The notes beneath the pieces were generated by a model that did no database searches, was not told the origin of the DNA, and was given only the letters and a program-made list of their open reading frames with translations. Position numbers and translations under genes: made by a program. Positions 32,015 to 55,599 of a stretch of DNA of 64,000 bases are shown in pieces. Every line of letters starts with the position of its first letter. Within the stretch, counting starts at the first letter, position 1. Source of the stretch: an uncultured Clostridia bacterium (GTDB lineage Bacteria; Bacillota; Peptococcia; Peptococcales; Peptococcaceae); the NCBI GenBank assembly GCA_944391285.1, contig CALXSY010000005.1, positions 11,196-75,195 on the forward strand, in the 5' to 3' direction.

Positions 32015-32027
32015 GGAGGAATAGCCA

Positions 32028-33479
32028 ATGTTGTCACAAGAGCGGGCGCCTATTTATGAAGCGCTGGAAAACTTCAAAAAAATGCGGGTTGTGCCCTTTG
32101 ATGTGCCTGGGCACAAAAGGGGCAGAGGTAATCCGGAGCTGGTTGCTTTATTGGGTGAAAAATGCGTAAGCATGGATGTTAATTCCATGAAGCCTTTGGA
32201 CAACTTATGTCATCCTATATCGGTTATCCGCGAAGCGGAAGATTTAGCGGCAGAAGCTTTCGGCGCTGCGCACGCCTTTTTAATGGTCGGCGGTACAACT
32301 TCAGCGGTGCAAAGCATGGTGCTGTCGGTGGTAAAGAGGGGAGATAAAATAATTTTACCCCGCAATGTTCACCGCAGTGTTATGGGAGCTTTGGTTTTAT
32401 GCGGTGCTGTGCCGGTGTATGTCAATCCGGAATGTGATGAACGTTTAGGCATTTCCTTAGGGATGTCCATAGATGCCGTTAAACAAGCTATTGCCGACAA
32501 TCCGGAGGCTAAGGCTATTTTGGTCAATAATCCGACCTATTACGGAATTTGCTCCGATTTAAAAAGCATCGTGGAGCTGGCTCACGCTCACGGCATGTAT
32601 TGCTTAGCTGACGAAGCTCACGGCACTCATTTTTATTTCGGTGAAAATATGCCTATCTCGGCAATGGCTGCCGGCGCTGATATGGCAGCAGTTTCGATGC
32701 ATAAATCCGGCGGCAGCTTAACCCAGTCCTCGTTACTATTAATCGGGGAAAATATTCAGGAAGGCTATGTACGCCAGATTATCAATCTGACTCAGACCAC
32801 CAGCGCTTCCTATTTATTATTATCCAGCTTGGATATTTCCCGACGCAATCTGGCATTGAGAGGTAAAGAAGCCTTTGCCAAAGTTGCGCAAATGGCTCAA
32901 TACGCCCGCAAAGAAATTAATTCTATCGGCGGGTATTATGCCTACGGTTCTGAGTTGATAAACGGTGACAGCGTATATGATTTTGATACCACTAAATTAG
33001 CTGTCAATACCTTAGATATCGGCTTAGCCGGCATCGAGGTTTATGATCTTCTGCGTGATGAGTACGATATTCAAATAGAATTCGGCGATTTGGGCAATAT
33101 TTTGGCTTATCTTTCCATCGGCGACCGAGAAAGGGATTTGGAGAGATTGGTCAGCTCTTTAGCAGAGATTCGCCGCCGCTTCGGCAAAAGCGGCAATGAG
33201 CTGATGAAGCAGGAGTATATAGACCCCAAAGTAGTTGCTTCGCCCCAGGAGGCTTTTTATGCTGACAAGGAATCCTTGCCTATCGAGCAGACTGAAGGAA
33301 GAATTTCCAGCGAATTTCTCATGTGCTATCCTCCGGGTATTCCCATTATTGCTCCCGGTGAGTTGATTACCAAAGAAATTTTAAATTATATTCAGTATGC
33401 TAAGGAAAAAGGCTGTTCCATCACCGGACCGGAAGATGCCGAGATAACTCGTTTAAATGTGTTGAAGGAGGGAGTTTAA
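32028..33479 (+). CDS. speA: PLP-dependent Orn/Lys/Arg decarboxylase (fold I), probable arginine decarboxylase as in Bacillus SpeA
   Basis: FDVPGHK.G N-terminus and PLP-lysine motif SMHKSGGSLTQSS. 483 aa. Sits in an operon with agmatinase. Confidence 0.8.
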   Translation: MLSQERAPIYEALENFKKMRVVPFDVPGHKRGRGNPELVALLGEKCVSMDVNSMKPLDNLCHPISVIREAEDLAAEAFGAAHAFLMVGGTTSAVQSMVLSVVKRGDKIILPRNVHRSVMGALVLCGAVPVYVNPECDERLGISLGMSIDAVKQAIADNPEAKAILVNNPTYYGICSDLKSIVELAHAHGMYCLADEAHGTHFYFGENMPISAMAAGADMAAVSMHKSGGSLTQSSLLLIGENIQEGYVRQIINLTQTTSASYLLLSSLDISRRNLALRGKEAFAKVAQMAQYARKEINSIGGYYAYGSELINGDSVYDFDTTKLAVNTLDIGLAGIEVYDLLRDEYDIQIEFGDLGNILAYLSIGDRERDLERLVSSLAEIRRRFGKSGNELMKQEYIDPKVVASPQEAFYADKESLPIEQTEGRISSEFLMCYPPGIPIIAPGELITKEILNYIQYAKEKGCSITGPEDAEITRLNVLKEGV

Positions 33480-34339
33480 TGGATTTATGGTTTTCCGAAA
33501 AACAAACGCCTTATGTTAAATTGTCCATCAAGGTAGACCGTCAGCTTTACAGCGGCAGAAGCGAATTTCAGCGGATTGATGTTTTTGAATCACCGGAATT
33601 CGGGCGTTTTTTGACCTTGGACGGCTACATGATGTTAACGGAAAAAGATGAATTTATCTATCATGAGATGATTACCCATGTGCCGATGGCAGTACACCCC
33701 AATGTCAAAAATGTTTTGGTAATCGGCGCCGGAGACGGCGGTGTTATCCGTGAATTAGCCCGCTATAATGATTTGGAGCATATCGACATGGTGGAGATTG
33801 ATCCGCTGGTAGTGGAGGTGTGCAAAAAATATTTGCCTCAGACAGCCTGCGCCTTTGATGATCCCCGTTTGGATATTCACTATGAAGACGGACTGAAATT
33901 TATCCGCAACTATGAGAATTGCTATGATTTGATTATCGTTGATTCCACCGATCCCTTTGGACCTGGTGAAGGATTATTTACCCGTGAATTTTACGGCAAC
34001 TGCTATAAGGCGCTGAAAGACGACGGTATTATGGTTAATCAGCACGAAAGCCCCTTCTATGAAGAGGATAGAATTGCCTGTCAGAGAGCCCATAAGCGCA
34101 TTGTTGAATCATTCCCCATCAGTAGAGTTTATCAGGCGCATATTCCGACATATCCGTCCGGACATTGGCTTTTTGGTTTTGCTTCCAAAAAATATCACCC
34201 GCTGAAAGATTTAGACTCCGTTCGCTGGAATGCTCGGGGATTAAAATGCAATTATTACACAACTATGCTTCACCGGGGAGCATTTTATATTCCCGCTTAT
34301 GTAGAGGAGATGCTAAAAGATGTTGAAAGCGAATATTGA
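33479..34339 (+). CDS. speE: Spermidine synthase (aminopropyltransferase)
   Basis: LDG..M.TE.DEF.YHEM, VIGAGDGGVIRE, IIVDSTDP.GPGEGLF. Confidence 0.92.
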   Translation: MDLWFSEKQTPYVKLSIKVDRQLYSGRSEFQRIDVFESPEFGRFLTLDGYMMLTEKDEFIYHEMITHVPMAVHPNVKNVLVIGAGDGGVIRELARYNDLEHIDMVEIDPLVVEVCKKYLPQTACAFDDPRLDIHYEDGLKFIRNYENCYDLIIVDSTDPFGPGEGLFTREFYGNCYKALKDDGIMVNQHESPFYEEDRIACQRAHKRIVESFPISRVYQAHIPTYPSGHWLFGFASKKYHPLKDLDSVRWNARGLKCNYYTTMLHRGAFYIPAYVEEMLKDVESEY

Positions 34340-35174
34340 GACTTTTTTAGCCTGTGATGCTGATTATAATGAGGCGCAGATTGTCATGTTCGGCGCACCT
34401 TATGATTCCACAACTTCATTTCGTCCGGGCACCCGTTTCGGTGCTCACGCCATCCGCTCCGAATCCTTCGGTTTAGAAAGCTACTCGCCGTATCAGGACA
34501 AGGATTTAACGGATTATGCTATCTTAGATATAGGCGATTTAGAATTGCGTTTTGGCGGACCGGAGAGTGCATTAAATGATATCGAGGACTGTGCCGAAGA
34601 AATTTTAGCCGATAATAAACTGCCCTTTTTAATCGGCGGTGAGCATTTAGTAACATTAGGCGCATTCAGAGCGGTGCAGAAGAAATATAATGATGTTTAT
34701 ATTATTCATTTTGATGCTCATGCAGATTTGAGGGAAGATTATCTGGGCGAAAAGCTTTCGCATGCTTGTGTCATGCGCCGCTGCTGGGATATCATCGGCG
34801 ACGGACACATTTTTCAATTCGGTATTCGCTCCGGCGACAAGTCCGAATGGCTCTTTGCCAAAGAGCATGTGACCATGAATCCTTTTAATTTAGAAACTTT
34901 AGAAGATGTAGTTGCCAAGCTTAAAGATAAAAAGGTTTATTTTACCCTTGATTTGGATATTTTGGATCCGTCAGTTTTTCCCGGAACCGGGACACCGGAG
35001 GCAGGAGGAATATCCTTTGACGAATTAAGAAAAGCAGTAACTTTAATTTGTCAAAGCTTGGATATCGTGGGTGTTGATGTGAACGAACTAAGCCCTCACT
35101 ATGACCAAAGCGGCACTTCGACGGCGGTCGCTTGCAAAATCATCAGAGAAATGTTATTAGCCTTAACCAAATAA
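34320..35174 (+). CDS. speB: Agmatinase (ureohydrolase family)
   Basis: Mn-binding motifs HFDAHADL, DLDILDP and GGIS..E. 284 aa. Overlaps the speE 3' end by 20 nt. Confidence 0.88.
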   Translation: MLKANIETFLACDADYNEAQIVMFGAPYDSTTSFRPGTRFGAHAIRSESFGLESYSPYQDKDLTDYAILDIGDLELRFGGPESALNDIEDCAEEILADNKLPFLIGGEHLVTLGAFRAVQKKYNDVYIIHFDAHADLREDYLGEKLSHACVMRRCWDIIGDGHIFQFGIRSGDKSEWLFAKEHVTMNPFNLETLEDVVAKLKDKKVYFTLDLDILDPSVFPGTGTPEAGGISFDELRKAVTLICQSLDIVGVDVNELSPHYDQSGTSTAVACKIIREMLLALTK

Positions 35175-35198
35175 GAGACACCAAAGGAGGAAATTTAA

Positions 35199-36458
35199 AT
35201 GGGAAAAGCATTAATTATCGGTTGCGGTGGAGTTGCCGGCGTAGTAATTCATAAATGCTGCCAAAACAGCGAGGTTTTTGAGGAAATCTGCATTGCCAGC
35301 CGTACCAAATCCAAATGCGACGACATGAAAGCTAAGTTGGAAGATACTACTAAAACCAAAATCACCACTGCGCAAGTTGACGCTGATAAAGTAGAAGAGG
35401 TTATCGCTTTAATCAACGAAGTGAAACCGGATATCGTGATGAATATCGCTCTGCCTTATCAGGATTTAACTATTATGGACGCTTGCTTGGCTTGCGGTGT
35501 TAACTATATGGATACCGCCAACTATGAGCCTGAAGATATCACCGAACCCACTTGGCGGGCAGCTTACGAAAAACGCTGTAAGGAAGAAGGCTTCACCGCT
35601 TATTTTGATTATTCCTGGCAATGGGCATATAAAGAAAAATTTGAAAAAGCCGGCTTAACTGCTCTCTTAGGCTCTGGCTTTGACCCCGGTGTTACTCAAG
35701 CCTACTGCGCTTATGCCCAAAAGCATTTATTTGACCAAATCGATACTATCGATATTTTGGACTGCAATGGCGGTGACCATGGTTATCCTTTCGCTACCAA
35801 CTTTAACCCGGAGATTAACCTTAGAGAAGTATCCGCTCCCGGCTCTTACTGGGAAAACGGTCATTGGGTAGAAATTCCGGCAATGAGCATCAAAAGAGAA
35901 TACAATTTCGACCAAGTAGGCATGAAAGATATGTACCTTTTGCACCACGAAGAAATTGAATCCTTAGCGAAAAATATCCCCGGTGTTAAACGCATTCGTT
36001 TCTTTATGACCTTTGGACAAAGCTATCTTACTCACATGAACTGCCTGCAAAATGTCGGTATGCTTTCTACCGAACCGATTATGTATGAGGGCAGAGAAAT
36101 CGTGCCTATCCAATTTTTAAAAGCTCTCTTGCCTGACCCGGCATCTTTAGGTCCCCGCACTGTGGGCAAGACCAATATCGGCTGTATCTTCACCGGCAAA
36201 AAGGACGGCAAAGAAAAGACCGCTTACATTTATAACGTCTGTGACCACCAGGAATGCTACAAAGAAGTAGGCTCGCAAGCTATTTCATACACCACCGGTG
36301 TGCCGGCAATGATTGGTGCGATGATGCTTCTAACCGGCAAATGGTCCAAACCAGGCGTTTATACTGTAGAGGAATTTGATCCAGATCCGTACATGGAAGC
36401 CTTAAACAAATGGGGATTGCCTTGGCAGATCGATGATAATCCGGTATTGGTGGACTGA
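35199..36458 (+). CDS. Carboxy(nor)spermidine dehydrogenase (saccharopine-dehydrogenase family, CASDH/CANSDH)
   Basis: N-terminal Rossmann IIGCGGVAGV, ~419 aa, immediately upstream of and start/stop-overlapping an nspC-type decarboxylase. Confidence 0.82.
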   Translation: MGKALIIGCGGVAGVVIHKCCQNSEVFEEICIASRTKSKCDDMKAKLEDTTKTKITTAQVDADKVEEVIALINEVKPDIVMNIALPYQDLTIMDACLACGVNYMDTANYEPEDITEPTWRAAYEKRCKEEGFTAYFDYSWQWAYKEKFEKAGLTALLGSGFDPGVTQAYCAYAQKHLFDQIDTIDILDCNGGDHGYPFATNFNPEINLREVSAPGSYWENGHWVEIPAMSIKREYNFDQVGMKDMYLLHHEEIESLAKNIPGVKRIRFFMTFGQSYLTHMNCLQNVGMLSTEPIMYEGREIVPIQFLKALLPDPASLGPRTVGKTNIGCIFTGKKDGKEKTAYIYNVCDHQECYKEVGSQAISYTTGVPAMIGAMMLLTGKWSKPGVYTVEEFDPDPYMEALNKWGLPWQIDDNPVLVD

Positions 36459-37594
36459 TGATGGAAAAATTTGACGATGGTGCCTTACGCACACCTTATT
36501 ATTTGATTGACGAGAGTCTGTTAAAGCATAATTTAGAAATACTGCAGGACGTGGCTGAAAGAAGCGGGGCGAAAATTTTATTAGCTCAAAAAGCTTTTTC
36601 CATGTTTGCTGTTTATCCGCTGTTAAATCAATATTTGGCAGGCACAGCCGCCAGCGGTTTATACGAAGCAAGGCTGGGGCATGAATATTTCGGGGGAGAA
36701 ACGCATGTTTTTTCCCCTGCTTTTCGTGAGGACGAGTTTGCGGAAATATTGCGCTATGCCGACCATGTAGTGTTTAACTCACCGGCACAGGTGAAAAAGT
36801 TTGCGCCGCAAGCCAAAGCGGCAGGCAAAGAAGTAGGTATTCGGATTAATCCCGAATGCTCCACCCAAGAAGGTCACGCCATTTATGACCCTTGCGCCGT
36901 GGGTTCCCGCTTAGGCACAACTTTGGCGAATTTTGACGAAAGTATTTTGCCCCTTTTGGACGGTATGCATTTTCATACTCTATGCGAGCAAAACAGCGAT
37001 GATTTGGAAACGACTTTAAAGGCTTTTGAAGAGAAATTCGGCAAATATCTTCCTGATTTAAAATGGCTTAATTTAGGCGGAGGGCATCATATTACCCGCA
37101 AAGATTACGATCTTGAACGCTTAGTTAAGCTGATTATTCATCTAAAAGAAACATATAATCTCCAAGTTTATTTAGAGCCGGGAGAAGCGGTAGTCTTAAA
37201 TGCCGGCTTTTTGGTAACTTCAGTTTTGGAAACTATGCACAACGGTATGGATATTGCCATTTTGGATACCTCAGCGGCTTGCCATATGCCCGATGTCTTG
37301 GAAATGCCTTACCGACCGCCGTTATATAATGAACAAAAGGACAATCCACCCTATACTTACCGTTTGGGCGGACCTACCTGCTTAGCAGGAGATATAATCG
37401 GCGATTACGGCTTTAGCCAAAGGCTGAAAGCCGGCGATCGGTTAGTTTTTTTGGACATGGCTTTATATACCATGGTCAAAAACAACACCTTTAACGGTAT
37501 GCCGTTACCAATGATCGTGCTGAAACATTTAGATGGCTCCTTTGAAATTGTACGCCGGTTCGGCTATGAGGATTTCAAAAACCGCTTATCCTAA
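36458..37594 (+). CDS. nspC: Carboxy(nor)spermidine decarboxylase
   Basis: TPYYLIDE..L..N N-terminus, LNLGGGHH motif, alanine-racemase-fold decarboxylase, 378 aa. ATGATG overlap with the upstream gene. Confidence 0.85.
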   Translation: MMEKFDDGALRTPYYLIDESLLKHNLEILQDVAERSGAKILLAQKAFSMFAVYPLLNQYLAGTAASGLYEARLGHEYFGGETHVFSPAFREDEFAEILRYADHVVFNSPAQVKKFAPQAKAAGKEVGIRINPECSTQEGHAIYDPCAVGSRLGTTLANFDESILPLLDGMHFHTLCEQNSDDLETTLKAFEEKFGKYLPDLKWLNLGGGHHITRKDYDLERLVKLIIHLKETYNLQVYLEPGEAVVLNAGFLVTSVLETMHNGMDIAILDTSAACHMPDVLEMPYRPPLYNEQKDNPPYTYRLGGPTCLAGDIIGDYGFSQRLKAGDRLVFLDMALYTMVKNNTFNGMPLPMIVLKHLDGSFEIVRRFGYEDFKNRLS

Positions 37595-45442: not shown

Positions 45443-46594
45443 ATGAACATAACAGCAGATATTAAATATGTAGGCGTAAATGACCATGATATCGACTTAT
45501 TTGAGGGACAATACGTTGTACCTAACGGCATGGCATATAATTCTTATGTAATAATTGATGAAAAAATTGCCGTGATGGACACAGTTGATGTGCATTTCTC
45601 CGATGAATGGCTTAATAATATTGCGAAAGCAACCGACGGCAGAAAGGTCGATTATTTAATCATTCAGCATATGGAGCCGGATCATTCGGCTAACATTGCC
45701 AGATTTATGGAGTTAAATCCTCAGACTACCATTGTTGCTACTCAAAAAGCTTTTGTGATGATGAATCAGTTTTTCGCTGATGATTATGCTGAGAGAAGAA
45801 TTGTTGCGTCTGAAGGCAGTGTTTTAAATTTAGGCAAACATGAGCTGACATTCTACACAGCGCCGATGGTTCACTGGCCGGAGGTTATGGTTACTTATGA
45901 TAAATTGGACAAAGTGCTCTTTAGTGCAGACGGCTTTGGCAAATTCGGCGCCGGAGATGTTGAGGAAGAATGGGACTGCGAAGCCAGACGCTACTATATC
46001 GGTATTGTCGGCAAATACGGCGCTCAGGTTCAAGCGCTGCTCAAAAAAGCCAGCGGCTTGGATATTCAAATCATCTGCCCTTTGCATGGTCCGGTTTTAA
46101 AAGAAAACTTGGCTCATTATCTCAATCTTTACAACACTTGGTCCAGCTACGGTGTTGAAAGCGAAGGTGTAGTAATCGCTTATACTTCTGTGTATGGTCA
46201 CACCAAAGAAGCAGTAGAAAAATTGGCAGAAAAATTAACAGAAAAAGGCTGCCCTAAGGTTGTAGTCTGTGATTTAGCGCGTTCGGATATGGCAGAAGCG
46301 GTCGAAGATGCTTTCCGTTACGGCAAGGTAGTATTGGCTACCACTACTTATAACAACGAATTGTTCCCCTTTATGAAAATTTTCATTGACCATTTGACCG
46401 AAAGAAACTATCAAAATCGTTTTGTCGGCTTTATCGAAAACGGCACTTGGGCACCTACTGCGGCGAAAAATATGAAAAAGATGCTCGAAGGCTGCAAAAA
46501 TATGACTTATGCCGATACGACTGTTACTATTAAATCAGCTTTAAATGCCGATAATTTAACTCAAATCGAGGAATTAGCTTCTGAGCTTTGCTAA
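45443..46594 (+). CDS. fprA: A-type flavodiiron protein (metallo-beta-lactamase-like plus flavodoxin-like domains)
   Basis: Diiron motif QHMEPDHS and a C-terminal flavodoxin-like domain (VVIAYTSVYGHT). 383 aa. Confidence 0.85.
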   Translation: MNITADIKYVGVNDHDIDLFEGQYVVPNGMAYNSYVIIDEKIAVMDTVDVHFSDEWLNNIAKATDGRKVDYLIIQHMEPDHSANIARFMELNPQTTIVATQKAFVMMNQFFADDYAERRIVASEGSVLNLGKHELTFYTAPMVHWPEVMVTYDKLDKVLFSADGFGKFGAGDVEEEWDCEARRYYIGIVGKYGAQVQALLKKASGLDIQIICPLHGPVLKENLAHYLNLYNTWSSYGVESEGVVIAYTSVYGHTKEAVEKLAEKLTEKGCPKVVVCDLARSDMAEAVEDAFRYGKVVLATTTYNNELFPFMKIFIDHLTERNYQNRFVGFIENGTWAPTAAKNMKKMLEGCKNMTYADTTVTIKSALNADNLTQIEELASELC

Positions 46595-46616
46595 TAAATT
46601 CAAGGAGGAAGAAAAA

Positions 46617-46991
46617 ATGGAACAAAAATTTTATATTTGCAAGCATTGCGGAAACATTGTAGCAATGGTTAAAAATGCCGGTGTACCTTTTATGTGCTGC
46701 GGTCAGAAGATGGAGCAAATCATTCCCGGTACTACCGATGCAGCTCAGGAAAAACATGTACCTGTCTACAAAGTAGAGGGTAACAAAGTATTGGTAACTG
46801 TAGGCTCTGCTCCTCATCCCATGCAGGATGAACATTATATCGAATGGATTTCTTTGCAAACCAAAGGCGGCAATCAACGCAAAGCCTTAAAACCCGGCGA
46901 TGAACCAAAAGTTTGCTTTGCTATTTGCGAAGGCGACGAAGTAGAAGCTGTCTATGCTTACTGCAATTTGCACAGCTTATGGAAAGCGTAA
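46617..46991 (+). CDS. dfx: Desulfoferrodoxin (2Fe superoxide reductase)
   Basis: N-terminal desulforedoxin CxxC...CC (CKHCGNIV...MCCG). Centre-II ligands (EKHVP, HPM..EHYIEW, YCNLH). 124 aa. Confidence 0.9.
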   Translation: MEQKFYICKHCGNIVAMVKNAGVPFMCCGQKMEQIIPGTTDAAQEKHVPVYKVEGNKVLVTVGSAPHPMQDEHYIEWISLQTKGGNQRKALKPGDEPKVCFAICEGDEVEAVYAYCNLHSLWKA

Positions 46992-46993
46992 TA

Positions 46994-47027
46994 AAAAACC
47001 AATCCCTAAAAGGGATTGGTTTTTTTA
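46994..47027. terminator. Bidirectional intrinsic terminator
   Basis: aaaaaaccaatccct-aaa-agggattggttttttt. Confidence 0.85.
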
Positions 47028-47807
47028 TTTTATGCGGTCGATAGCTTTTAAAATACCGTAAATAATTGCCGGCGGGCGGGGAGGACAGCCGGGAATATAC
47101 ATATCAACAGGAATAACGCTGTCTACACCGTTATTGGTCGCATAACTATCTCTAAAGATACCACCGCTTAAAGCACAAGCACCGCAGGCTACAACAATTT
47201 TCGGATCCGGTGTTGCTTCGTAGGCTTGCAGGAGAGCTCTGTGCATATTGCGGGTAACCGAACCGGTCACTAAAAGCATATCAGCGTGGCGGGGAGAAGC
47301 CACAAAAGTAATGCCTAAGCGCTCTAAATCGTTCAAAGGGTTCATCAGCGCATTGGCTTCGTAATCACAGCCGTTGCAGGAGCCGGCGTCAATTTCTCGG
47401 ATCTGCAAAGAGCGGCGCAGGGTTTTTTGAATCTTAGTTTTTAGTTCCTCCGCCAATGCTTCCGTATCAACTGCCGGAATTTGCTCAATAATCATAGGTT
47501 TGCGGAGTAAATTGGCTTTATTGCTGGTGCTGTCGGTGAAGGATTCGGTCATGAATATTGCTTGAGCGTGGCAAAGGTCAGCACATAAGCTGCAATAGAT
47601 GCATTGGTCGATATGCACATTGGGATAGCCGTCATTATCAATGCTAATCGCTTTAGCCGGACAATTCTGGGCGCAGATACGGCATTTCTGACATTTATCA
47701 GCCAGTATAGCCGGTGCACCAACATAGCCGGTATTGTCAATGGGCTTAAAGGGATAATCATTGGTCAAGCGGCGATATTTCAATACTTTTTCGTATTTTT
47801 TCAGCAT
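47025..47807 (-). CDS. Fusion of a 2x[4Fe-4S] ferredoxin module (HycF/HyfH/NuoI-like) to a NuoB/HycG/HyfI-like small subunit
   Basis: N-terminal half: CQKCRICAQNCP and CIYCSLCADLCH. C-terminal half: DAGSCNGCDYE, ACGACALSGG and IPGCPPRP, the NuoB-type proximal-cluster ligands. Confidence 0.85.
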   Translation of the reverse strand: MLKKYEKVLKYRRLTNDYPFKPIDNTGYVGAPAILADKCQKCRICAQNCPAKAISIDNDGYPNVHIDQCIYCSLCADLCHAQAIFMTESFTDSTSNKANLLRKPMIIEQIPAVDTEALAEELKTKIQKTLRRSLQIREIDAGSCNGCDYEANALMNPLNDLERLGITFVASPRHADMLLVTGSVTRNMHRALLQAYEATPDPKIVVACGACALSGGIFRDSYATNNGVDSVIPVDMYIPGCPPRPPAIIYGILKAIDRIK

Positions 47808-47821
47808 AAGAAAAACTCCTT

Positions 47822-49462
47822 TTAAAGGTCATTGCCTGAGTAAGAGAGGTTGAAACTTTTGTTGATTAACGGAAAATCCGGCACCAAATTGGTATTGACC
47901 GCATAAGGCACAGCCATCCAGTTGCAGAAGGAGGGAGTGCGGACTTTATAGCGGTAAATAGTGTTGTTTTCGCCGACCATCAGCCAATGCATATTTTCGC
48001 CGCGGGCAGCTTCGGTGATTCCGTAAGCGTATTCATAAGGCGGCAGTTTATCAGGCAGAGGAACGGAGATTTCGCCGTCCTTTAAGCCGTCGATGACGCT
48101 GAGCATGAGATTAACGGAGCTTAAAGCTTCGCTTAAACGGACGTTGAAACGGCAGCTGACATCGCCGCAGTCCAAATGATGAGCGGCAAATTTGAATTGA
48201 TCGTAAACGCTGTAAGGATGATTTTTGCGTACATCATAATCCAAACCGGAAGCTCTGCCGGCTATGCCGGTAGCATTTAAATCATACGCCGTATGGGCAT
48301 ACAAAACCCCGGTGTGCTCTAAGCGGTCGAGAAACATCGTGTCATTTTGCGCAATCTCCGTCGTGTCAATGATTTCCCTGCGAATAGCTTTCAGCTGCTC
48401 AACAGCACCGTGTTCTTTGCCCTTTAAAAAATCTTTGCGCACACCGCCTAATTTATTGGTACTGCGCAAAAAACGAGTATTGGTCAAATAATGGGCTAAA
48501 TTGTAGCCCATGATGCGCAGCATATTAAACTGTGAAGCCAAGAAAAGATTGGCTGTATCCCCGGCAATTCCGGATAAATCGCCGAAATGCGAAATAATTC
48601 GTTCTAATTCAGCAAGGATAATGCGTGTGTGCTGAGCCCGAAGCGGAACCTCTGCCTTAGCAATTTTTTCTGCCGCTAAGCAATAAGCAAAAGAATTGGC
48701 AAAGGTTTCATCGCCGCTGATACGCTCAGAGAGGAAGAAGCCTTGCTGAATGGTCATTTGCTCGGCAAGCTTTTCCGTGCCTTTATGAGTGTAGTGCATC
48801 TTGGTTTGCAGGTTGATAATCGGCTCACCGGCTACGGTGAAACGAAAATGCCCCGGCTCGATGACTCCGGCGTGAATAGGTCCAACCGGTATTTGATAAA
48901 CATCAGGACTGTCAATAGTGATTAATGCCGGCTCCGGCACATCTTTAGCCTCCGGCAAGGGCGGCTGAGAAAGATCGGTCACGCTTTTTCTTAGATGAGG
49001 CGGATGATTCTGCCAGTTGCCGTGATAGATTAAATCAGTAGGATTGGGATGCTCCAAGGGTTCTAAGGCAAATAAATCCCGGATTTCCCGCTCATATTTA
49101 TCAGCAGCCGGAGTTATTTTGGTGATGGAGGGAAAATTAGGCTCCTCGGGAGTAATAGGCACAGTGATGATAAAATGGCAGTTTTGCAGATGGTGCGAAT
49201 AGGTATAATAGAGGGTGAAATGACCGTTAATAGCTATCTCATCATTGCAAAAAAGGTTAGTCAGAGGCAAACGATGAGTGTGATTGAGGAGCATATTGAA
49301 TTTGCGCAGATTGGTGGTAGTGGTGTTAAGATAAATTTCATTGCCGTTTTTGCGGATCACAGCAGTTTTGGTTTGAGTTTGTTCGTTTATCTTTGTCAGC
49401 TGCTTTAATATTTCGTCAGCTAAAGTTGCTGACGGCGCTAAATGGGCTTTGTAATCGTACAT
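47822..49462 (-). CDS. Group-4 [NiFe]-hydrogenase large-subunit homologue (NuoC-NuoD / HycE / HyfG-like) lacking the NiFe cysteine ligands
   Basis: Colinear with HycE/HyfG. The L1 motif position reads ERISGDETFAN where R-x-C-G-x-C-xxx-H is expected. The C-terminus reads SFNLSYSGNDL-stop where D-P-C-x-x-C-x-x-R is expected. No C-terminal cleavable extension. Confidence 0.85.
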   Translation of the reverse strand: MYDYKAHLAPSATLADEILKQLTKINEQTQTKTAVIRKNGNEIYLNTTTTNLRKFNMLLNHTHRLPLTNLFCNDEIAINGHFTLYYTYSHHLQNCHFIITVPITPEEPNFPSITKITPAADKYEREIRDLFALEPLEHPNPTDLIYHGNWQNHPPHLRKSVTDLSQPPLPEAKDVPEPALITIDSPDVYQIPVGPIHAGVIEPGHFRFTVAGEPIINLQTKMHYTHKGTEKLAEQMTIQQGFFLSERISGDETFANSFAYCLAAEKIAKAEVPLRAQHTRIILAELERIISHFGDLSGIAGDTANLFLASQFNMLRIMGYNLAHYLTNTRFLRSTNKLGGVRKDFLKGKEHGAVEQLKAIRREIIDTTEIAQNDTMFLDRLEHTGVLYAHTAYDLNATGIAGRASGLDYDVRKNHPYSVYDQFKFAAHHLDCGDVSCRFNVRLSEALSSVNLMLSVIDGLKDGEISVPLPDKLPPYEYAYGITEAARGENMHWLMVGENNTIYRYKVRTPSFCNWMAVPYAVNTNLVPDFPLINKSFNLSYSGNDL

Positions 49463-49476
49463 TTATTTCAACTCCT

Positions 49477-50955
49477 CTATGGTAGGATAACTTGTTGGGC
49501 TAAGGTTAAAAGTTTAGTTAAAAAAGGCGGAGTATAAATACCCATAACGGCGATTAAAATTAACAAAAGCAAAATTACACAATTTCCGCTGATACTTTTA
49601 AAAGAAGATGTAGGTGTTGATTCATCTTTTTCACCGTAGAAAATCGGTGTTATGGTGTAGATGATGGAAGCAAAAATAACCGCCAAAAGCACTGCCAAAA
49701 TACCGCCTAAAACAAAGCTTTTTGCTTGAAAGATTGCCGTTAAAACCGTAAACTCGCTGATAAAAACGGAAAAGGGCGGAGTACCGGCGATGGCAAATAA
49801 GCCTAACAAAAAGACAACGGCAGTAAATGGTGCAGTTTTTAATAACGCCTTAACACTTTTGATTTCTCCTGACTGATAGGTATGGAGAATATTGCCGGTA
49901 GTTAAAAAGAGCATGGTTTTGGTTAAAGAGTGATTGAGCAAATGAAACAAAGCACCGTAAACAGCTAAGGGAGTATTGATTGCTAATGCTAAAACGATGA
50001 TGCCCATATGCTCTATGCTGGAATATGCCAAAAGGCTTTTGTATTCCCGCTGGCTCAAGATAAAGTAAACTGCTGCCAATATAGAGAGAAACGCGAGAAT
50101 TAACAAAAATGGGGTGGTATATTGGGAGCCGTCGGCATTGGTATTTAAAATGCCGGTGATGCGGATAATGGGATAAAGGGCTGTATTTAACAATACCCCG
50201 GACAAAAGGGCGCTGATAGGCGAAGGGGATTGGCTGTGAGCGCTGGGCAGCCAGGAATGCATAGGCGCCAAGCCGGCTTTAGTGCCAAAGCCGATCAGCA
50301 TAAAAATAAAGGCTAAGCGCAGGGTATCAGTATCTAAATTAGCAGCATTGAGGGTCAATGCTTGTACGCAAAGATAGAGATCTTCGCTTAAGCATTGCAG
50401 GGAAGATAAATGCAGCAAAATTACGCCCAAAAAAGCTGTAGCAATACCGACCGAGCAAATGATAACGTATTTCCAAGCCGCCTCAACAGAAGAATGTTTG
50501 TTGTAAAAGCCAACCAAAAAGGTGCTGGCTAAAGTGGTAGCTTCCACAGCAATCCAGATGATACCGAAATTGCCGCTTGTTAAGGCTAAAAGCATGGTAA
50601 AGGTAAAAATATTGGTCATGATGTAGTAAATGCGGATCCTGGCAGAGGTTATCTTGCCGTGATGGACATCAAAGTTTAAATAATTGACCGCATAAATACT
50701 GATTAAAAAGTTTAAAAAAGCAGTAATCAGCAAAAGCAGTGTATTTAAAGGGTCTAAATACGTATGCAGATTGTGATTAGCCAAAACACTGCGCACCAGA
50801 ACCTCTTTTGTAAGCAGAAGAACAATAATTAAAACCACGCCGTTAATTAAAATATTGGCTGCATGGTGCAGGCGGTTGCTGCGGGTTGCAATGTAGATGG
50901 GCAGGCTAATTAAAGGTAAAATTGGCAAAACAGTTGCCAGATTAATCAAGCTCAT
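49477..50955 (-). CDS. NuoN/HyfF-like antiporter-type membrane subunit
   Basis: 492 aa, ~14 TM helices. Mrp/NuoLMN-family motifs (GFGTKAGL.PMH.WLP.AH, LAYSSIEHMG). Confidence 0.85.
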   Translation of the reverse strand: MSLINLATVLPILPLISLPIYIATRSNRLHHAANILINGVVLIIVLLLTKEVLVRSVLANHNLHTYLDPLNTLLLLITAFLNFLISIYAVNYLNFDVHHGKITSARIRIYYIMTNIFTFTMLLALTSGNFGIIWIAVEATTLASTFLVGFYNKHSSVEAAWKYVIICSVGIATAFLGVILLHLSSLQCLSEDLYLCVQALTLNAANLDTDTLRLAFIFMLIGFGTKAGLAPMHSWLPSAHSQSPSPISALLSGVLLNTALYPIIRITGILNTNADGSQYTTPFLLILAFLSILAAVYFILSQREYKSLLAYSSIEHMGIIVLALAINTPLAVYGALFHLLNHSLTKTMLFLTTGNILHTYQSGEIKSVKALLKTAPFTAVVFLLGLFAIAGTPPFSVFISEFTVLTAIFQAKSFVLGGILAVLLAVIFASIIYTITPIFYGEKDESTPTSSFKSISGNCVILLLLILIAVMGIYTPPFLTKLLTLAQQVILP

Positions 50956-50961
50956 AATGAT

Positions 50962-51606
50962 CTATCCTCTCAAGTTGTGTAGTTTATCGGTATCAGTCGA
51001 TTGAAATTTGGTGTCGATTTGAAAGATTATCATGCTCATGATGATGATTGCGGTCAGTAAATCGATGAAAATACCTAAATCAACTATTAACGGCATACCT
51101 CGGGTTGTAAAAAGCGCAGTGGAAAACAAGCCGTTTTCGATTACCAAAAAACCGATAATGTGACCTAAGGCATCCTTGCGGCTGATCATAAACAATAAAC
51201 CAATCAAGACGATTGCTAAGTTGCAGCTTAAGGGAGTAACTACACCTTTGGCGGAAATTAAGGGTATTTGGTAGATGCTGATATAACAAATAACTACCAA
51301 CAGGCAGGCTATAAAGGATAGAATGGGGATATTCAGATAAAAATCCTTGTGAATCTCGTGCGTTACTTTATTATAGGTACGGCGCAGATATTTGGGAATA
51401 TAGATGACTTTTAAAAACAACATTAAACAGCCAACAATCAACAACTCCAAATGCTGAGTTTCAGCTGCCATGATTAAAGCACCGATGGTGATTACCAAGG
51501 ATTGAACCTGAAAGGTGCGGATGTAAGAAAGGGATCTTTTATTGGCGATTAAAACTATGCCGGACAATAAAATAATCATGGAGAACATATCGTAAATACT
51601 ATTCAT
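50962..51606 (-). CDS. HyfE-like small membrane subunit
   Basis: About 214 aa with 6-7 TM helices. Position and size match hydrogenase-4 component E. ATG at 51606 behind AAGGAG. Confidence 0.7.
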   Translation of the reverse strand: MNSIYDMFSMIILLSGIVLIANKRSLSYIRTFQVQSLVITIGALIMAAETQHLELLIVGCLMLFLKVIYIPKYLRRTYNKVTHEIHKDFYLNIPILSFIACLLVVICYISIYQIPLISAKGVVTPLSCNLAIVLIGLLFMISRKDALGHIIGFLVIENGLFSTALFTTRGMPLIVDLGIFIDLLTAIIIMSMIIFQIDTKFQSTDTDKLHNLRG

Positions 51607-51621
51607 CAGGCACACTCCTTG

Positions 51622-52563
51622 TTAAAATATATAAACGCACAGAAAGCCCAAAAGGCTTAAGATAACTGCTAAGGCGGCATAGTTGGCGATACTGAAGAAA
51701 CGAAGCTTAACCGTGTTGGTTTCAATTAATCCTAAGATTATGCTGATAATGATAACCTTGAGCACCAATATACTTAAGCTTAAAACGATTCCTAAAATTC
51801 CTCCAAAGCTGATGAGCTGATCATGGGGAAAGAAGATATTAGCAATCAGGGTAATATAAATTAATTGCTTTAAATAAGCCGCCAATTCCACTAAGCCCAA
51901 ATGACGGCCGGAATACTCCAATATCATAGCCTCATGAATCATCGTTAACTCCAAATGGGTGGAAGGATCATCAATGGGAATACGGGCGGTTTCAGTAATA
52001 GTGACCATTAATAAAGCCAAAAGCAGCAGCAAATGCACCGGGTCGATGCTTAAGGAAGAATTGGCGCTTTCAATCATGATTTTGCGCAAATCGGTAGAAC
52101 CGTAATAAATAGCTAAAGTTACCAAGGCAATAATTAACGCCGGTTCGATGATGCTTTTTAAGGTATTCTCCCGGCTGCTGCCCATACCGCCGAAGGTGCT
52201 GGAGGTATCTAAGGCTGCCAAGGTTAAGAAAAAGCCGCCTAAGGCAAGAGTATAAACCAAAACAAGCATATCACCCGGCAGATTGACTGTTACTTTGGTG
52301 CTCAAGGGCACCAAGCAGGCTGCCAAAAGGGTACTGCCCAGAAGAATATAGGGAGTGAGCACAAGCACCTTGCTGGAAGTGGTGGAAATTGTTACCTGCG
52401 GTTTTTTTAGGAGCTTGATCAAGTCATAATAAGGCTGAAATATGGAAGCTCCGCGGCGTTTTTGAAAACGCGCTTTTATTTTGCGGATAATGCCGGTTGG
52501 CAGAGGAGCCAAAAGAAGCATGATAATTATTTGAAGAAAAGTATAGGTAATGAGAGTTGTCAT
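51622..52563 (-). CDS. NuoH/HycD/HyfC-like membrane subunit
   Basis: 313 aa. Motifs RK..A..Q.R.G and E.E..L..G...EYSG typical of NuoH/HycD. Confidence 0.82.
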   Translation of the reverse strand: MTTLITYTFLQIIIMLLLAPLPTGIIRKIKARFQKRRGASIFQPYYDLIKLLKKPQVTISTTSSKVLVLTPYILLGSTLLAACLVPLSTKVTVNLPGDMLVLVYTLALGGFFLTLAALDTSSTFGGMGSSRENTLKSIIEPALIIALVTLAIYYGSTDLRKIMIESANSSLSIDPVHLLLLLALLMVTITETARIPIDDPSTHLELTMIHEAMILEYSGRHLGLVELAAYLKQLIYITLIANIFFPHDQLISFGGILGIVLSLSILVLKVIIISIILGLIETNTVKLRFFSIANYAALAVILSLLGFLCVYIF

Positions 52564-52583
52564 GTTTATTCTCCTTATTTTGC

Positions 52584-54617
52584 TTAAAGCACGCTATTGT
52601 ACACAATAAAGACGATTAAAACCAAAAGAATATACAAAAGATACTGCTGGATATAACCGTTTTGCAGTCTTTCTGTCAAAAATTGAGAAATTTTTTGGTG
52701 AGTATGAATAAATGGTTCATAGAGATACTGCACAATAGGTTTTTTAATGGTTTGGCTGTAGGTAAGCTTTTGCCGGTTGTAGGGATTGTAATTGTCATTG
52801 CCGCTTTTGAATTCCGGCTGATAAAGCAGGCGGAAGATAATTAAAATCGGGTTGGCATAAGCGCTGGAGGAATACTGCATAAGAGGAGTTTGGTGAGTAA
52901 AGCCGCAGTCCCAAGTATTATAATAGCGTTTTTTGAGCTTGCCGCCGATAATGATGCTCATGATAAGACCAAATAAAATTAAAGCCAGCAAAAGAATGAT
53001 GATTACTGTCGGGTCATAGTTAGCCAGAGCAGGAGAATTATCATAAGTAGGCAGATTATAAATGTAGTAGGGATTGACTGCCGGCAAATGAGCAGCAGAA
53101 GATACGACTGTTGTTATCATGCCGACAGCAAAGGAAGGATAAACCGAATTAAAGATTAAAAAAGCAACCGGCAAAACCAGAGCAATGCGCATGGAAAGAG
53201 GAACCTCCTGCGCTTTTTGGGCATGTGCACTCCGGGGCGTGCCTAAAAAGGTGATGCCGAAAAATTTAACAAAGGTTAACGCCGCCAATGCTCCCACCAT
53301 TGCTAAAAGGGCGATAGTTAAAATTAAAATCAAATTCATAAAAGGCGTATTGGCAGAAATCAGAGCGATCAACGACTGATAGGTGAGCCATTCACTGCTA
53401 AAGGTAGCAAAGGGCACTACTGCCGCCACGGCTAAGGATAAAATTAAGACACAAGCCGCCGTAAAGGGCATGACCTTTGCCAGACCGCCTAAAAGAGGAA
53501 TTTCCTTGGTGTGGGCAGCGTATTGAACGCAGCCGGCGCTTAAAAATAAGCCGCCTTTGACGATGGTGTGATTTAAGGTGTGGAAAAGACCACCCATCAA
53601 AGCTAAAGAAGCAATAGCAGGATGATTTAAATTGTCTGCTACCATAGCCGCTCCTAAGGCTGTAGTGATGATGCCGATATTTTCAATGCTGGAGTAAGCC
53701 AAAAGTCTTTTAAAATTGTTTTCCACTGCCGCATAAGCAATACCGCCGACGGCGCTTACAATGCCGATGATTAAAACCAGCGTGCAAAACCATAAAGGCA
53801 AGGAAAAGGGAATAAAGATAAAACGGATAAAGCCATAGACAGCTGTTTTAATCATAATGCCGCTCATTAAGGCGCTGACATTGGAGGGAGCCGCAGGGTG
53901 AGCCATGGGCAGCCAAATATGAAAAGGAACTAAGCCCGCTTTGGTGCCAAAGCCGATAAACAGAAGAATTGCCAATATAACTTGCAAGCCCGAGCTTAAG
54001 AAGCTTAGATCTTGAGGCAGCAGCATGCTTTCGGTATAAGTAAAGATTACTAAAAAAGCAATCAAGAGCAAAGAAGCCGCCAAATGGGTCATGATGACAT
54101 AAAGGGTAGAAGCTTTCTGTGTTTCTTTGTCAGCATGCTCGAAATTAGCCAAAAAGTAACTGCTGACCGACATGATCTCCCAGAAGATATAGAAGCTTAA
54201 CAAATTTTGGGCGGTAAATACTACAAATAACGAAAAAATGAAGGCGCTGTTGAGCAAATTAAAAACCGCCAAATTATATTTATCTTGGTAGTGGGTTAAA
54301 TATTTAGGAGTATAAATTGCAACTGCCAGCAAAAGCAGATTTAAGTCTAAGAGAAAATAAGCGCTTAAGTAATCTATACCTAAAGTAAAAGTAAAATTGG
54401 GAATAGAAGTAGGCAGGTCAAATAGAGCGATGTATTCTAAGCTGCTGTTAAGCTGATACATAGCGCTGATTATCCCTGCAAAAGCGCCTAAAGCTAAAAG
54501 AATATTCACCAGATACGAATTAATCTTTTGCCATTTTATGCTTATAACCGCCGCTAAAAAAGCTAAAAGATAAAAGGAAGCACAGAGAATATAAGGTGAA
54601 GATAAAAGTTGAAACAT
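52584..54617 (-). CDS. NuoL/HyfB/HycC-like antiporter-type membrane subunit
   Basis: 677 aa. FWE.MS..SY, GFGTKAGLVPFH.WLP.AH and LAYSSIENIG. First gene of the operon, with a GGGAGG RBS. Confidence 0.85.
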   Translation of the reverse strand: MFQLLSSPYILCASFYLLAFLAAVISIKWQKINSYLVNILLALGAFAGIISAMYQLNSSLEYIALFDLPTSIPNFTFTLGIDYLSAYFLLDLNLLLLAVAIYTPKYLTHYQDKYNLAVFNLLNSAFIFSLFVVFTAQNLLSFYIFWEIMSVSSYFLANFEHADKETQKASTLYVIMTHLAASLLLIAFLVIFTYTESMLLPQDLSFLSSGLQVILAILLFIGFGTKAGLVPFHIWLPMAHPAAPSNVSALMSGIMIKTAVYGFIRFIFIPFSLPLWFCTLVLIIGIVSAVGGIAYAAVENNFKRLLAYSSIENIGIITTALGAAMVADNLNHPAIASLALMGGLFHTLNHTIVKGGLFLSAGCVQYAAHTKEIPLLGGLAKVMPFTAACVLILSLAVAAVVPFATFSSEWLTYQSLIALISANTPFMNLILILTIALLAMVGALAALTFVKFFGITFLGTPRSAHAQKAQEVPLSMRIALVLPVAFLIFNSVYPSFAVGMITTVVSSAAHLPAVNPYYIYNLPTYDNSPALANYDPTVIIILLLALILFGLIMSIIIGGKLKKRYYNTWDCGFTHQTPLMQYSSSAYANPILIIFRLLYQPEFKSGNDNYNPYNRQKLTYSQTIKKPIVQYLYEPFIHTHQKISQFLTERLQNGYIQQYLLYILLVLIVFIVYNSVL

Positions 54618-54963
54618 AGAGAGATCCTCCCGGAATTATTTAAAATATTTACAAGATTAGCGCATACCTTTCTAATTGTAATACTTTTAAGAAAAAGGGT
54701 CAAGGAAAAGGAAATAGTACGAATATTATATTTTTTTATTATAATTAGTAAAAATTAGGGAAAAAAGGAAAAATCCATTTGTCTTTTTTTAAAATAGGTT
54801 CAAACATATTTATTTATAGTTAAATAAGAATATTTCCTTATATAAAGATATAACAAAAATACTTAAAAATGTGAAAAAAATAACTTGTAATTTCTTATAT
54901 AATAGTATTATAATAGTTAGAAAGATTAATTGATATACATATAAAGAATGGGGTTTTGTACTT

Positions 54964-55599
54964 ATGAAAAATGTAAAAATACCTGAAGTGGCAGTAAGCC
55001 GTTTGTCAGTTTATTCTCGTTTTCTAACACAGATAGAAAAAAGCGGTGTGGTAAGAATTTCTTCCGGCGAAATAGCTGCCGGTACAGGAGGAACTCCGGC
55101 TCAAGTACGCAAAGATTTAGCTTATTTCGGTGAGTTCGGCACCAGAGGTGTTGGTTATAACGTAGCAGAGCTCAATAAAGAAATCTGCAATATTTTAGGT
55201 ATCGGTAAAAAGTGGCGGGTAATTTTAGTCGGAGCCGGTAATTTAGGCTCGGCTTTGACCCAATACGCCGGATTTAAAAGCCGAGGGTTTGATATTGAAG
55301 CAGTCTTTGACAATGATTTAAATAAAGTCGGCTTAAGATTAAACGATACACCGGTTATGGCAATTAATCGCATTTATGATTATGTAGTTGAAAATAAGAT
55401 TGATATTGCCATTATTGCCGTGCCGGATAAACATGCTCAAGATATTGCTGATTTATTGGTTACCAGCGGCATCAAAGGAATTTTAAACTTTGCACCGGTT
55501 ACTTTAAATATTCCGGAAGATGTCCAAGTCAGAAATGTTGATTTAGCTGTAAATTTGGAAATTTTAAGCTTTAATATCGTTGTCAATAATAAGGAATAA
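54964..55599 (+). CDS. rex: Redox-sensing transcriptional repressor Rex
   Basis: IP...V.RL..Y.R.L winged-helix N-terminus, Rossmann VGAGNLG.AL. 211 aa. Confidence 0.92.
   Translation: MKNVKIPEVAVSRLSVYSRFLTQIEKSGVVRISSGEIAAGTGGTPAQVRKDLAYFGEFGTRGVGYNVAELNKEICNILGIGKKWRVILVGAGNLGSALTQYAGFKSRGFDIEAVFDNDLNKVGLRLNDTPVMAINRIYDYVVENKIDIAIIAVPDKHAQDIADLLVTSGIKGILNFAPVTLNIPEDVQVRNVDLAVNLEILSFNIVVNNKE

Follow-up and report, generated by a model that had tools for sequence, protein, structure and literature searches.

An Ehr-type operon of an uncultured Clostridia bacterium encodes a hydrogenase-like large subunit without the four NiFe-ligating cysteines

We describe a six-gene operon, ehrABCDLS, in a 64,000-nucleotide stretch of DNA (the window) from an uncultured Clostridia bacterium of the family Peptococcaceae (GenBank assembly GCA_944391285.1, contig CALXSY010000005.1, positions 11,196 to 75,195 of the forward strand). 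The operon has the architecture of a group-4 energy-converting [NiFe] hydrogenase, strong purifying selection acts on its six genes, and its large subunit, EhrL, has lost all four cysteines that ligate the NiFe centre, so that, judged from the alignments, the complex cannot bind NiFe through the canonical ligands. The locus adds one member to the recognised and widespread Ehr (energy-converting / Ech-hydrogenase-related) family. With a probability of about one half, we read the complex as an Ehr-type, ferredoxin-fed and ion-translocating oxidoreductase that would use an acceptor other than protons and would descend from a group-4f-like [NiFe] hydrogenase lacking the cleavable C-terminal tail.

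Ehr was named first in Geobacter and was later called a 'missing link' from group-4 hydrogenases to complex I; further reports place it in Mycobacterium tuberculosis (Rv0081-87), comammox Nitrospira, ammonia-oxidising archaea (AOA) and candidate phyla, with its function stated as unknown throughout (PMC7894505, PMC6349859, PMC6728331, PMC10284858, PMC10432482, PMC3569383). As published, the family has six subunits, A-B-C-D-L-S (PMC6349859, PMC10284858, PMC10432482, PMC7894505, PMC3569383). The literature searched, to 2026, on EhrL, EhrS and structural or biochemical Ehr work yields only genomic and proteomic mentions, in agreement with an earlier sequence-only reading of this window, which had described the electron donor, acceptor and coupling ion as, to its knowledge, experimentally undetermined. 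The family stands between energy-converting hydrogenases and complex I, and its hosts include pathogens (M. tuberculosis), nitrifiers, methanogens and gut and sediment anaerobes.

Architecture of the operon

The six open reading frames (ORFs) are co-directional on the minus strand between positions 47025 and 54617, with intergenic gaps of 20, 6, 6, 14 and 14 nt from ehrA onward (Table 1). In the order A-B-C-D-L-S, they encode a HyfB-like, a HycD/NuoH-like, a HyfE-like and a HyfF-like subunit, a NuoC-NuoD/HycE-like large subunit, and a fusion of a ferredoxin with NuoB. The ORF positions, together with the domains found in profile searches (Pfam and NCBIfam models), confirm the Hyf/Hyc-style six-gene architecture that the sequence-only reading had proposed for this interval. 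In structure-linked searches (phmmer against PDB), the best solved-structure matches of the subunits come from E. coli formate hydrogenlyase (FHL; 7Z0S), with the membrane-bound hydrogenase (MBH) of Pyrococcus next. EhrA matches HycC best (7z0s_C, 1.7e-63), EhrB matches HycD best (7z0s_D, 4.8e-39) and then MbhM and MbsM, EhrL matches HycE best (3.8e-73), and EhrS matches HycG (2.7e-44), MbhJ (2.2e-41) and HycF (2.5e-08). Against the Pfam NiFeSe_Hases model, EhrL scores 19.1, under the cutoff of 25.8. For ehrC, listed here from its GTG start, an alternative ATG at 51606 gives a protein of 214 aa, the form used by gene callers in the source contigs.

E. coli Hyc (7Z0S) and Hyf thus provide the closest solved structures, and the NCBIfam HyfB, HyfE and HyfF models are the top models for the membrane subunits of the window. 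Unlike the window operon, however, Hyc and Hyf have the NiFe cysteines, a 32-aa tail cleaved by HycI, separate HycF/HyfH and HycG/HyfI genes, the extra subunit HycB/HyfA, the partner FdhF and adjacent hyp/hycI genes. As a label, Hyf/Hyc holds for the group-4 architecture but not for the nearest kinship: among hydrogenases, the operon is closest to group-4f-like enzymes without a tail, not to Hyf/Hyc proper.

Loss of the NiFe ligands in EhrL

In the phmmer alignment with HycE from PDB, RVCGICGFAH falls over RISGDETFAN and DPCYSCTD over NLSYSGND, and a multiple alignment of EhrL with E. coli K-12 HycE, HyfG and NuoCD gives the same columns. The columns of HycE C241, C244, C531 and C534 are occupied by S249, E252, S540 and G543 in EhrL, and that of the histidine of the L1 motif by Asn256. 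These alignments bear out the loss of the four ligand cysteines noted from the sequence alone, including the changes of Cys to Ser at the first ligand, of His to Asn, and of Cys to Ser and Cys to Gly at the C-terminus. At the second ligand, by contrast, the proposed change of Cys to Asp has to be corrected, since the aligned residue is Glu252 and Asp251 is the 'x' of CGxC, one residue before. The cleavable C-terminal tail is missing, as had been supposed: the EhrL chain terminates near Asp545, at the same point as NuoD and the Cys-retaining sister sequences, where HycE and HyfG continue for a further 32 aa.

Canonical cysteines that are merely shifted, for example by a frameshift, would have undercut this result. 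There are none: the motifs ERISGDE[T/S]xxN and, at the C-terminus, NLSY[A/S]GNDL occur in 120 of the 120 closest homolog clusters (47-99% identity), and the replacement motifs are also conserved over about 70 distant loci. EhrL contains no alternative CxxC, and its only conserved cysteines, C261, C437 and C513, are scattered.

The four cysteines are kept, in the forms RICG[AV]C..H and ELCY[AS]CxDR-stop, by ten of the retrieved relatives, among which are Thermincola, Desulfotomaculum/Peptococcaceae, Ectobacillus and a metagenome-assembled genome (MAG) of Negativicutes. The group 4f [NiFe] hydrogenases (putative 'Ehf'; D. ruminis Desru_3260-3265) have the same six genes in the same order as the window operon. 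At 35-40% identity, the group-4f-like sisters share with EhrL the tail-less C-terminus (...xDR/L) and the IEPGHFRF beta1-beta2 loop, and differ from it in their four cysteines, in Gly for Asp302 and in V/A/I for Asp251. These Cys-retaining 4f-like sisters are presumably true hydrogenases.

Could EhrL itself still serve a hydrogenase, through a non-canonical metal site or displaced cysteines? The overall fold and most of the conserved core residues are kept, and HycE is the best match both by sequence and by structure: an AlphaFold2 monomer model of EhrL (predicted TM-score 0.80) has HycE as its best Foldseek match (TM-score 0.80), followed by NuoCD (0.77). Nevertheless, we consider this highly improbable, since the ligand columns are non-Cys in every clade member with no other CxxC to take their place, neither hyp nor hycI is present in the read parts of the 95-kb scaffold, and the Cys-retaining sisters show what the functional site of this lineage looks like.

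Conservation and selection

The exact EhrL protein is found on several independent metagenome contigs. In relatives at 80% and 70% amino-acid identity, the six genes are complete and of equal lengths, with no frameshift or internal stop, and across the operon pN is 0.12-0.26 against a saturated pS of 0.71-0.81 (dN/dS <0.1 where computable). The substituted residues are themselves conserved, contrary to expectation for a dead site. The missing catalytic ligands and the lack of maturation genes nearby might suggest a decaying pseudogene cluster left after the loss of hydrogen metabolism, an objection that the sequence-only reading had itself raised. Decay is ruled out by the complete orthologues and the low dN/dS, unless, improbably, every relative sampled had become a pseudogene just as recently, and the chance of this explanation is close to nil: none of the six genes is disrupted, the replacement residues are conserved across phyla, and Geobacter Ehr subunits have been detected as abundant proteins (PMC7894505).

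Membership, spread and tree of the Ehr family

Alignment and gene content support the assignment of the operon to the published Ehr family. The assignment is based on how the family has been defined in print and on the presence in our locus set of taxa for which Ehr has been reported (Nitrospira, AOA, actinomycetes). The arrangement in six subunits, the large subunit devoid of ligand cysteines and the NuoB cluster that is kept match the published descriptions, and the same placement made earlier from the sequence alone is correct. Likened by published description, Geobacter sulfurreducens EhrABCDLS (GSU0739-45) and M. tuberculosis Rv0082-Rv0087 have the same six subunits, with a Cys-less large one, and likewise lack dedicated maturation genes (PMC7894505, PMC6728331, PMC10284858, PMC10432482).

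Relatives were sought with two conserved peptides in one genome per species (best match at most 49% identity). At least 589 species genomes of bacteria and archaea have a relative, spread over Bacillota, Acidobacteriota, Nitrospirota, Verrucomicrobiota, Actinomycetota, Chloroflexota, Rokubacteria, AOA, Methanosarcina and Methanomassiliicoccales. The six-gene core recurs in the 80 loci compared, from many phyla, with the NuoB gene last or first: Bacillota loci read A-B-C-D-L-S and actinobacterial loci S-A-B-C-D-L, the latter being the typical order of Rv0082-87. When the flanking ORFs within 6 kb of the 80 operons were clustered, no recurrent neighbour gene emerged and no formate dehydrogenase (FDH), carbon monoxide dehydrogenase (CODH), NuoEFG or quinone genes were present; the clusters held only spurious antisense ORFs, histidine kinases, ArsR-type regulators and ABC transporters. 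A pairing of FDH with Ehr, proposed for Margulisbacteria (PMC6349859), was considered and set aside, as no FDH lies beside the 80 related operons.

In a neighbour-joining tree built on distances, rooted on HycE/HyfG and without support values, the window EhrL lies within the Cys-less group and the Cys-retaining 4f-like sequences are basal. Ligand positions 1, 3 and 4 are Ser, Ser and Gly in all Cys-less members, and this shared set is consistent with a single ancient loss of the cysteines. In published work, Ehr is nearest to group 4f (PMC10284858), and D. ruminis EhrL has its four cysteines (PMC3569383).

Public names of the Cys-less large subunits are 'NADH-quinone oxidoreductase subunit C' and 'Ni,Fe-hydrogenase III large subunit/component G', and one homolog cluster member is named 'pyridine nucleotide-disulfide oxidoreductase'. 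This misnaming is systematic and can mislead metabolic reconstruction.

A remodelled pocket

The columns that switch along with the loss of the cysteines are very few, namely Asp251, Asp302, Pro510 and Asn538. At position 302, an Ehr-specific Asp is present in 91% of the Cys-less members; the sisters that retain the cysteines have Gly there, and HycE and HyfG have Phe. Asp302 is paired with an Asp of NuoD (Thermus thermophilus Nqo4 Asp139, E. coli NuoCD Asp329) in the multiple alignment as well as in two pairwise ones, and this is the Asp partnered with the quinone-ligand His38 of complex I. One Nitrospirota clade has neither Asp251 nor Asp302, so the two were apparently gained together. Glu202 of the beta1-beta2 loop and the C-terminal Asp545 are invariant in Cys-retaining and Cys-less members alike, and in the alignment they are the equivalents of MbhL Glu21 and Asp379. 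In simulations of MBH, proton-donor or coupling roles were obtained for MbhL Glu21, His75 and Asp379, of which Glu21 lies in the beta1-beta2 loop and structurally matches Nqo4 His38, and Asp379 follows the second CxxC (PMC11228991).

Two pocket subtypes can be told apart: 'E/N', with Glu at the second Cys position and Asn at the L1 His, and 'T/S-H', with Thr or Ser at the second Cys position and the His kept. The E/N subtype is found in the window operon, other Bacillota, AOA, Methanosarcina and Dehalococcoidia, whereas most other bacterial Ehr complexes are of the T/S-H subtype. These subtypes are clades, and no independent co-variation is claimed. In Nitrospirota MAGs (loci L023 and L074), one contig has two tandem Ehr operons, the first type of pocket being 'STSHSG', without Asp251 and Asp302, and the other 'SDTHSG'.

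The position of Asp302 in the quinone-site Asp column of complex I, specific to Cys-less members, raises the question of whether the complex might be a ferredoxin:quinone (menaquinone) oxidoreductase, i.e., a minimal complex I lacking the N-module, of the kind suggested for NDH-1 and Fpo-like complexes. EhrL and NuoD are also of equal C-terminal length, and many members occur in quinone-containing aerobes (Nitrospira, Acidobacteriota, actinomycetes, AOA). Compared with the complex I Q-module (NuoB, NuoCD, NuoI, NuoH), the operon shares the NuoC-NuoD fusion seen in E. coli, the absence of NiFe cysteines, the C-terminal end and the Asp139 column, but it is without the quinone Tyr/His, the N-module (NuoEFG) and NuoA/J/K, and it has two antiporter-like subunits rather than three (L, M, N) and six genes against the 11-14 core subunits of complex I. 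Its membrane subunits are much nearer to those of Hyc/Mbh. We regard quinone reduction as distinctly unlikely: the columns of the head-group ligands Nqo4 Tyr87 and His38 hold Gly250 and Ile201, invariant and as in true hydrogenases; EhrB is HycD-like rather than NuoH-like (4.8e-39 to HycD, against 1e-7 to 1e-8 to complex I NuoH); and no quinone-biosynthesis gene is present in the read parts of the 95-kb scaffold. A weaker point in the same direction is that the closest named relatives include Acetobacterium, whose type species, A. woodii, is reported to have no quinones or cytochromes and to have Rnf as its only ion-motive enzyme (PMC3315566). A. woodii itself is probably without Ehr, because Rnf is said to be its sole ion-motive enzyme (PMC3315566).

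Fe-S clusters and antiporter-like subunits

In EhrS, the proximal-cluster cysteines of the NuoB-like domain (C144, C147, C211 and C241) align with the ligands of HycG and MbhJ, as the sequence-only reading had held, and the ferredoxin domain has eight cysteines in two CxxCxxCxxxC motifs. All 12 Fe-S cysteines are kept in the window clade and in the wider Bacillota clade. The complex is predicted to keep three [4Fe-4S] clusters, two in the HycF/NuoI-like domain and the third, proximal one in the fused NuoB-like domain. This fusion of a 2x[4Fe-4S] HycF/NuoI-like domain to the small subunit marks the window clade, whereas most Ehr members have a plain or otherwise extended NuoB. In a Chloroflexota MAG (locus L061, JALYXG010000207.1), a large subunit with four NiFe cysteines occurs with a fused ferredoxin-NuoB protein that has E/C/E/D at the proximal ligands.

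In the membrane arm, EhrA and EhrD both have the Glu of transmembrane helix (TM) 5, the Lys of TM7, the Lys of TM8 and the Glu of TM12, and the TM7 Lys/His of EhrD is conserved in the alignment with MbhH. With these key charged residues present, both antiporter-like subunits are intact, as the earlier reading had judged.

Proposed mechanism and alternative functions

As a plausible mechanism for a ferredoxin-fed oxidoreductase, a conserved polar/acidic pocket would have taken the place of the NiFe site, and reduced ferredoxin, the most plausible soluble low-potential donor, would dock on the fused ferredoxin-like domain. Because no NuoEFG, FDH or CODH partner is encoded here or beside the relatives, a soluble carrier probably docks at this domain. 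Complex I relatives without the N-module offer one analogy for such docking. The other, from which the docking of ferredoxin is proposed, is MbhN of MBH (PMC11228991). Electrons would then run through the three clusters to the interface of the L, S and B subunits, where a redox-linked change of charge or protonation in the carboxylate pocket (E202, D251, E252, D302) would move the beta1-beta2 loop; this movement would drive H+ or Na+ translocation via the antiporter-like subunits, and the terminal acceptor would be something other than H+. A precedent for a group-4 relative that is without H2 chemistry and still ferredoxin-driven and ion-translocating is the polysulfide-reducing MBS/Mbx of Pyrococcus (PDB 6U8Y). 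It is distant from the window operon (MbsL 8.4e-21, MbsJ 3.8e-26, MbsM 4.5e-19), consists of 13 subunits, Mrp-type extras among them, and shows a different remodelling of the active site.

Several observations weigh against such an oxidoreductase. No terminal acceptor can be named for the complex, and the quinone ligands that could have pointed to one are absent, with Gly250 and Ile201 in place of Nqo4 Tyr87 and His38. In the EhrL model, pLDDT falls below 50 in the pocket segments 177-227 (the beta1-beta2 loop region) and 515-546 (the C-terminal motif), and because confidence is low exactly at the pocket, the cavity is not readable from the model. A Rex operator (TTGTKAANNNNTTMACAA, at most two mismatches) is not found near the operon, the one match elsewhere in the window being at chance level. 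The neighbouring rex, desulfoferrodoxin and flavodiiron genes are absent beside the 80%- and 70%-identity operons, where synteny covers the six genes only, so the adjacency of rex is not conserved. Finally, twelve Cys-less members are without all four NuoB cluster ligands and without the ferredoxin domain, although the six-gene operon is complete in each. They belong to Methanosarcina (L055, L065), Dehalococcoidia (L048, L073; Dehalococcoidales and Dehalogenimonas are among the groups concerned) and, in the remaining loci (L062, L030, L034, L040, L047, L054, L067, L068), to groups that include Moduliflexus, several Patescibacteria, a Bdellovibrionales MAG and a Thermoleophilia MAG. Their former ligand motifs read, e.g., GSDNSTE / GDDA / PGNPP, leaving a peripheral arm without a recognisable redox cofactor. 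Because some members have no cluster ligands, redox chemistry cannot be the function of the whole family.

These cluster-less relatives, which have the full operon and the same L pocket, are also an argument for a different function, that of a redox-independent or redox-gated Mrp-like cation/proton antiporter in which the peripheral arm would act as a cap, either structural or regulatory, the acidic pocket would bind an ion or proton, and the clusters would sense redox state without sustaining turnover. The lack of a conserved donor or acceptor partner gene near the 80 loci, the lack of recognisable acceptor-site residues, and the gain of the carboxylates D251 and D302 beside E202 and E252 point the same way, and EhrA and EhrD match MrpA/D at 1e-32 to 4e-37. 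Unlike Mrp antiporters, however, the window operon has a peripheral arm (L, S) and no MrpE/F/G-like genes. In the window clade, moreover, the 12 Fe-S cysteines are strictly kept and a two-cluster domain is fused, which would be costly if regulatory only, and the HycF/NuoI-type domain serves as an electron wire in FHL, MBH and complex I. On balance, we hold an antiporter of this kind to be possible, though rather unlikely.

A more far-reaching and doubtful proposal is that the NiFe pocket has been rebuilt as a dedicated carboxylate cation/proton site, formed by E202, D251, E252 and D302 in the E/N subtype and by E202, D251, D302 and His256 in the T/S-H subtype; with Ehr, the complex I superfamily would then have a third functional class. 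If this were true, the 'substrate' of the coupling site would be neither H2 nor quinone but an ion or a non-thiolate metal centre, the Fe-S-less relatives would represent the redox-free extreme, and the Bacillota clade with the fused ferredoxin domain would be the redox-driven version.

By itself, the locus makes the Ehr question no more tractable than many known Ehr operons do. It is a compact, self-contained six-gene example with a built-in ferredoxin-type entry domain, and the Asp pair, the MBH-type coupling residues, the two pocket subtypes and the lineages without the NuoB cluster are testable handles on Ehr.

Table 1 Features of the ehr operon and its flanks (window coordinates)
Feature	Position	Strand	Basis
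ehrA, HyfB/HycC/NuoL-type antiporter-like membrane subunit, 677 aa	52584..54617	-	PF00361 9.9e-51; NCBIfam hydrogenase-4 subunit B 7.5e-165
ehrB, HycD/NuoH-like membrane subunit, 313 aa	51622..52563	-	PF00146 7.4e-43
ehrC, HyfE-like small membrane subunit, 217 aa from GTG	50962..51615	-	NCBIfam NF008556 hydrogenase-4 membrane subunit 4.9e-27, full length
ehrD, HyfF/MbhH/NuoM-N-type antiporter-like subunit, 492 aa	49477..50955	-	PF00361 7e-55; HyfF model 4.6e-130
ehrL, NuoC-NuoD fusion / HycE-like large subunit, 546 aa	47822..49462	-	PF00329 and PF00346
Former L1 metal motif ERISGDETFAN, aa 246-256	48695..48727	-	Cys1 to Ser249, Asp251 gained, Cys2 to Glu252, His to Asn256
Asp302, Ehr-specific, column of Nqo4 Asp139 / E. 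coli NuoCD Asp329	48557..48559	-	alignment
Former L2 motif and C-terminus NLSYSGNDL-stop, aa 538-546	47825..47851	-	Cys3 to Ser540, Cys4 to Gly543, Asp545 retained
ehrS, 2x[4Fe-4S] ferredoxin::NuoB fusion, 260 aa	47025..47807	-	Fer4 dicluster families; PF01058 5.8e-34
ehrS, HycF/NuoI-like 2x[4Fe-4S] domain, about aa 30-90	47538-47720	-	Fer4
ehrS, HycG/NuoB-like proximal-cluster domain, about aa 140-260	47028-47390	-	PF01058
15-bp-stem hairpin with flanking A/T runs, likely bidirectional intrinsic terminator	46993..47025	.	terminator scan
Two sigma-70-like promoter candidates, TTTACT-16-TATAAT and TTGACC-17-TACAAT	54675..54752	-	consensus scan, weak

Genomic neighbourhood and other genes of the window

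In the precomputed Pfam annotations of the window and the read flanks of the 95-kb scaffold, there are no hyp, hycI, fdh, CODH or nickel-transport genes, and only housekeeping genes appear; for the window, this agrees with the earlier statement that maturation, formate dehydrogenase and CO dehydrogenase genes are missing from it. The putative terminator hairpin separates the stop codon of ehrS (47025) from that of a convergent desulfoferrodoxin (dfx-like) gene (46991) and would be shared by both genes. The promoter candidates belong to an AT-rich region of 346 nt upstream of ehrA, and the number of matches there is not above the shuffled expectation.

A flavodiiron protein and the desulfoferrodoxin are encoded at 45443-46991 (+), convergent with the ehr operon, and a gene for a Rex-type regulator lies divergently upstream of ehrA at 54964-55599 (+). 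A functional link of the operon to NADH sensing or oxygen detoxification was considered and dropped, as these neighbours are not conserved and the Rex operator was not found.

Further from the operon, two tandem genes at 24461-27439 and 27770-30748 (+) encode 992-aa paralogs that are 66% identical over their full length; both have a signal-peptide-like N-terminus and, at the C-terminus, a Cu_amine_oxidN1 domain, and probably represent a duplicated cell-surface protein. A gene for a PemK-family toxin is found at 3244-3627 (+), in the coordinates of locus L084, between an alanine racemase and a Tex-like protein, with no obvious antitoxin beside it in the Pfam listing. A complete-looking polyamine biosynthesis cluster occupies 31256-37594 (+) and encodes AdoMet decarboxylase, Orn/Lys/Arg decarboxylase, spermidine synthase, and agmatinase/arginase-fold, saccharopine-dehydrogenase-like and Orn/DAP/Arg decarboxylase-fold proteins.

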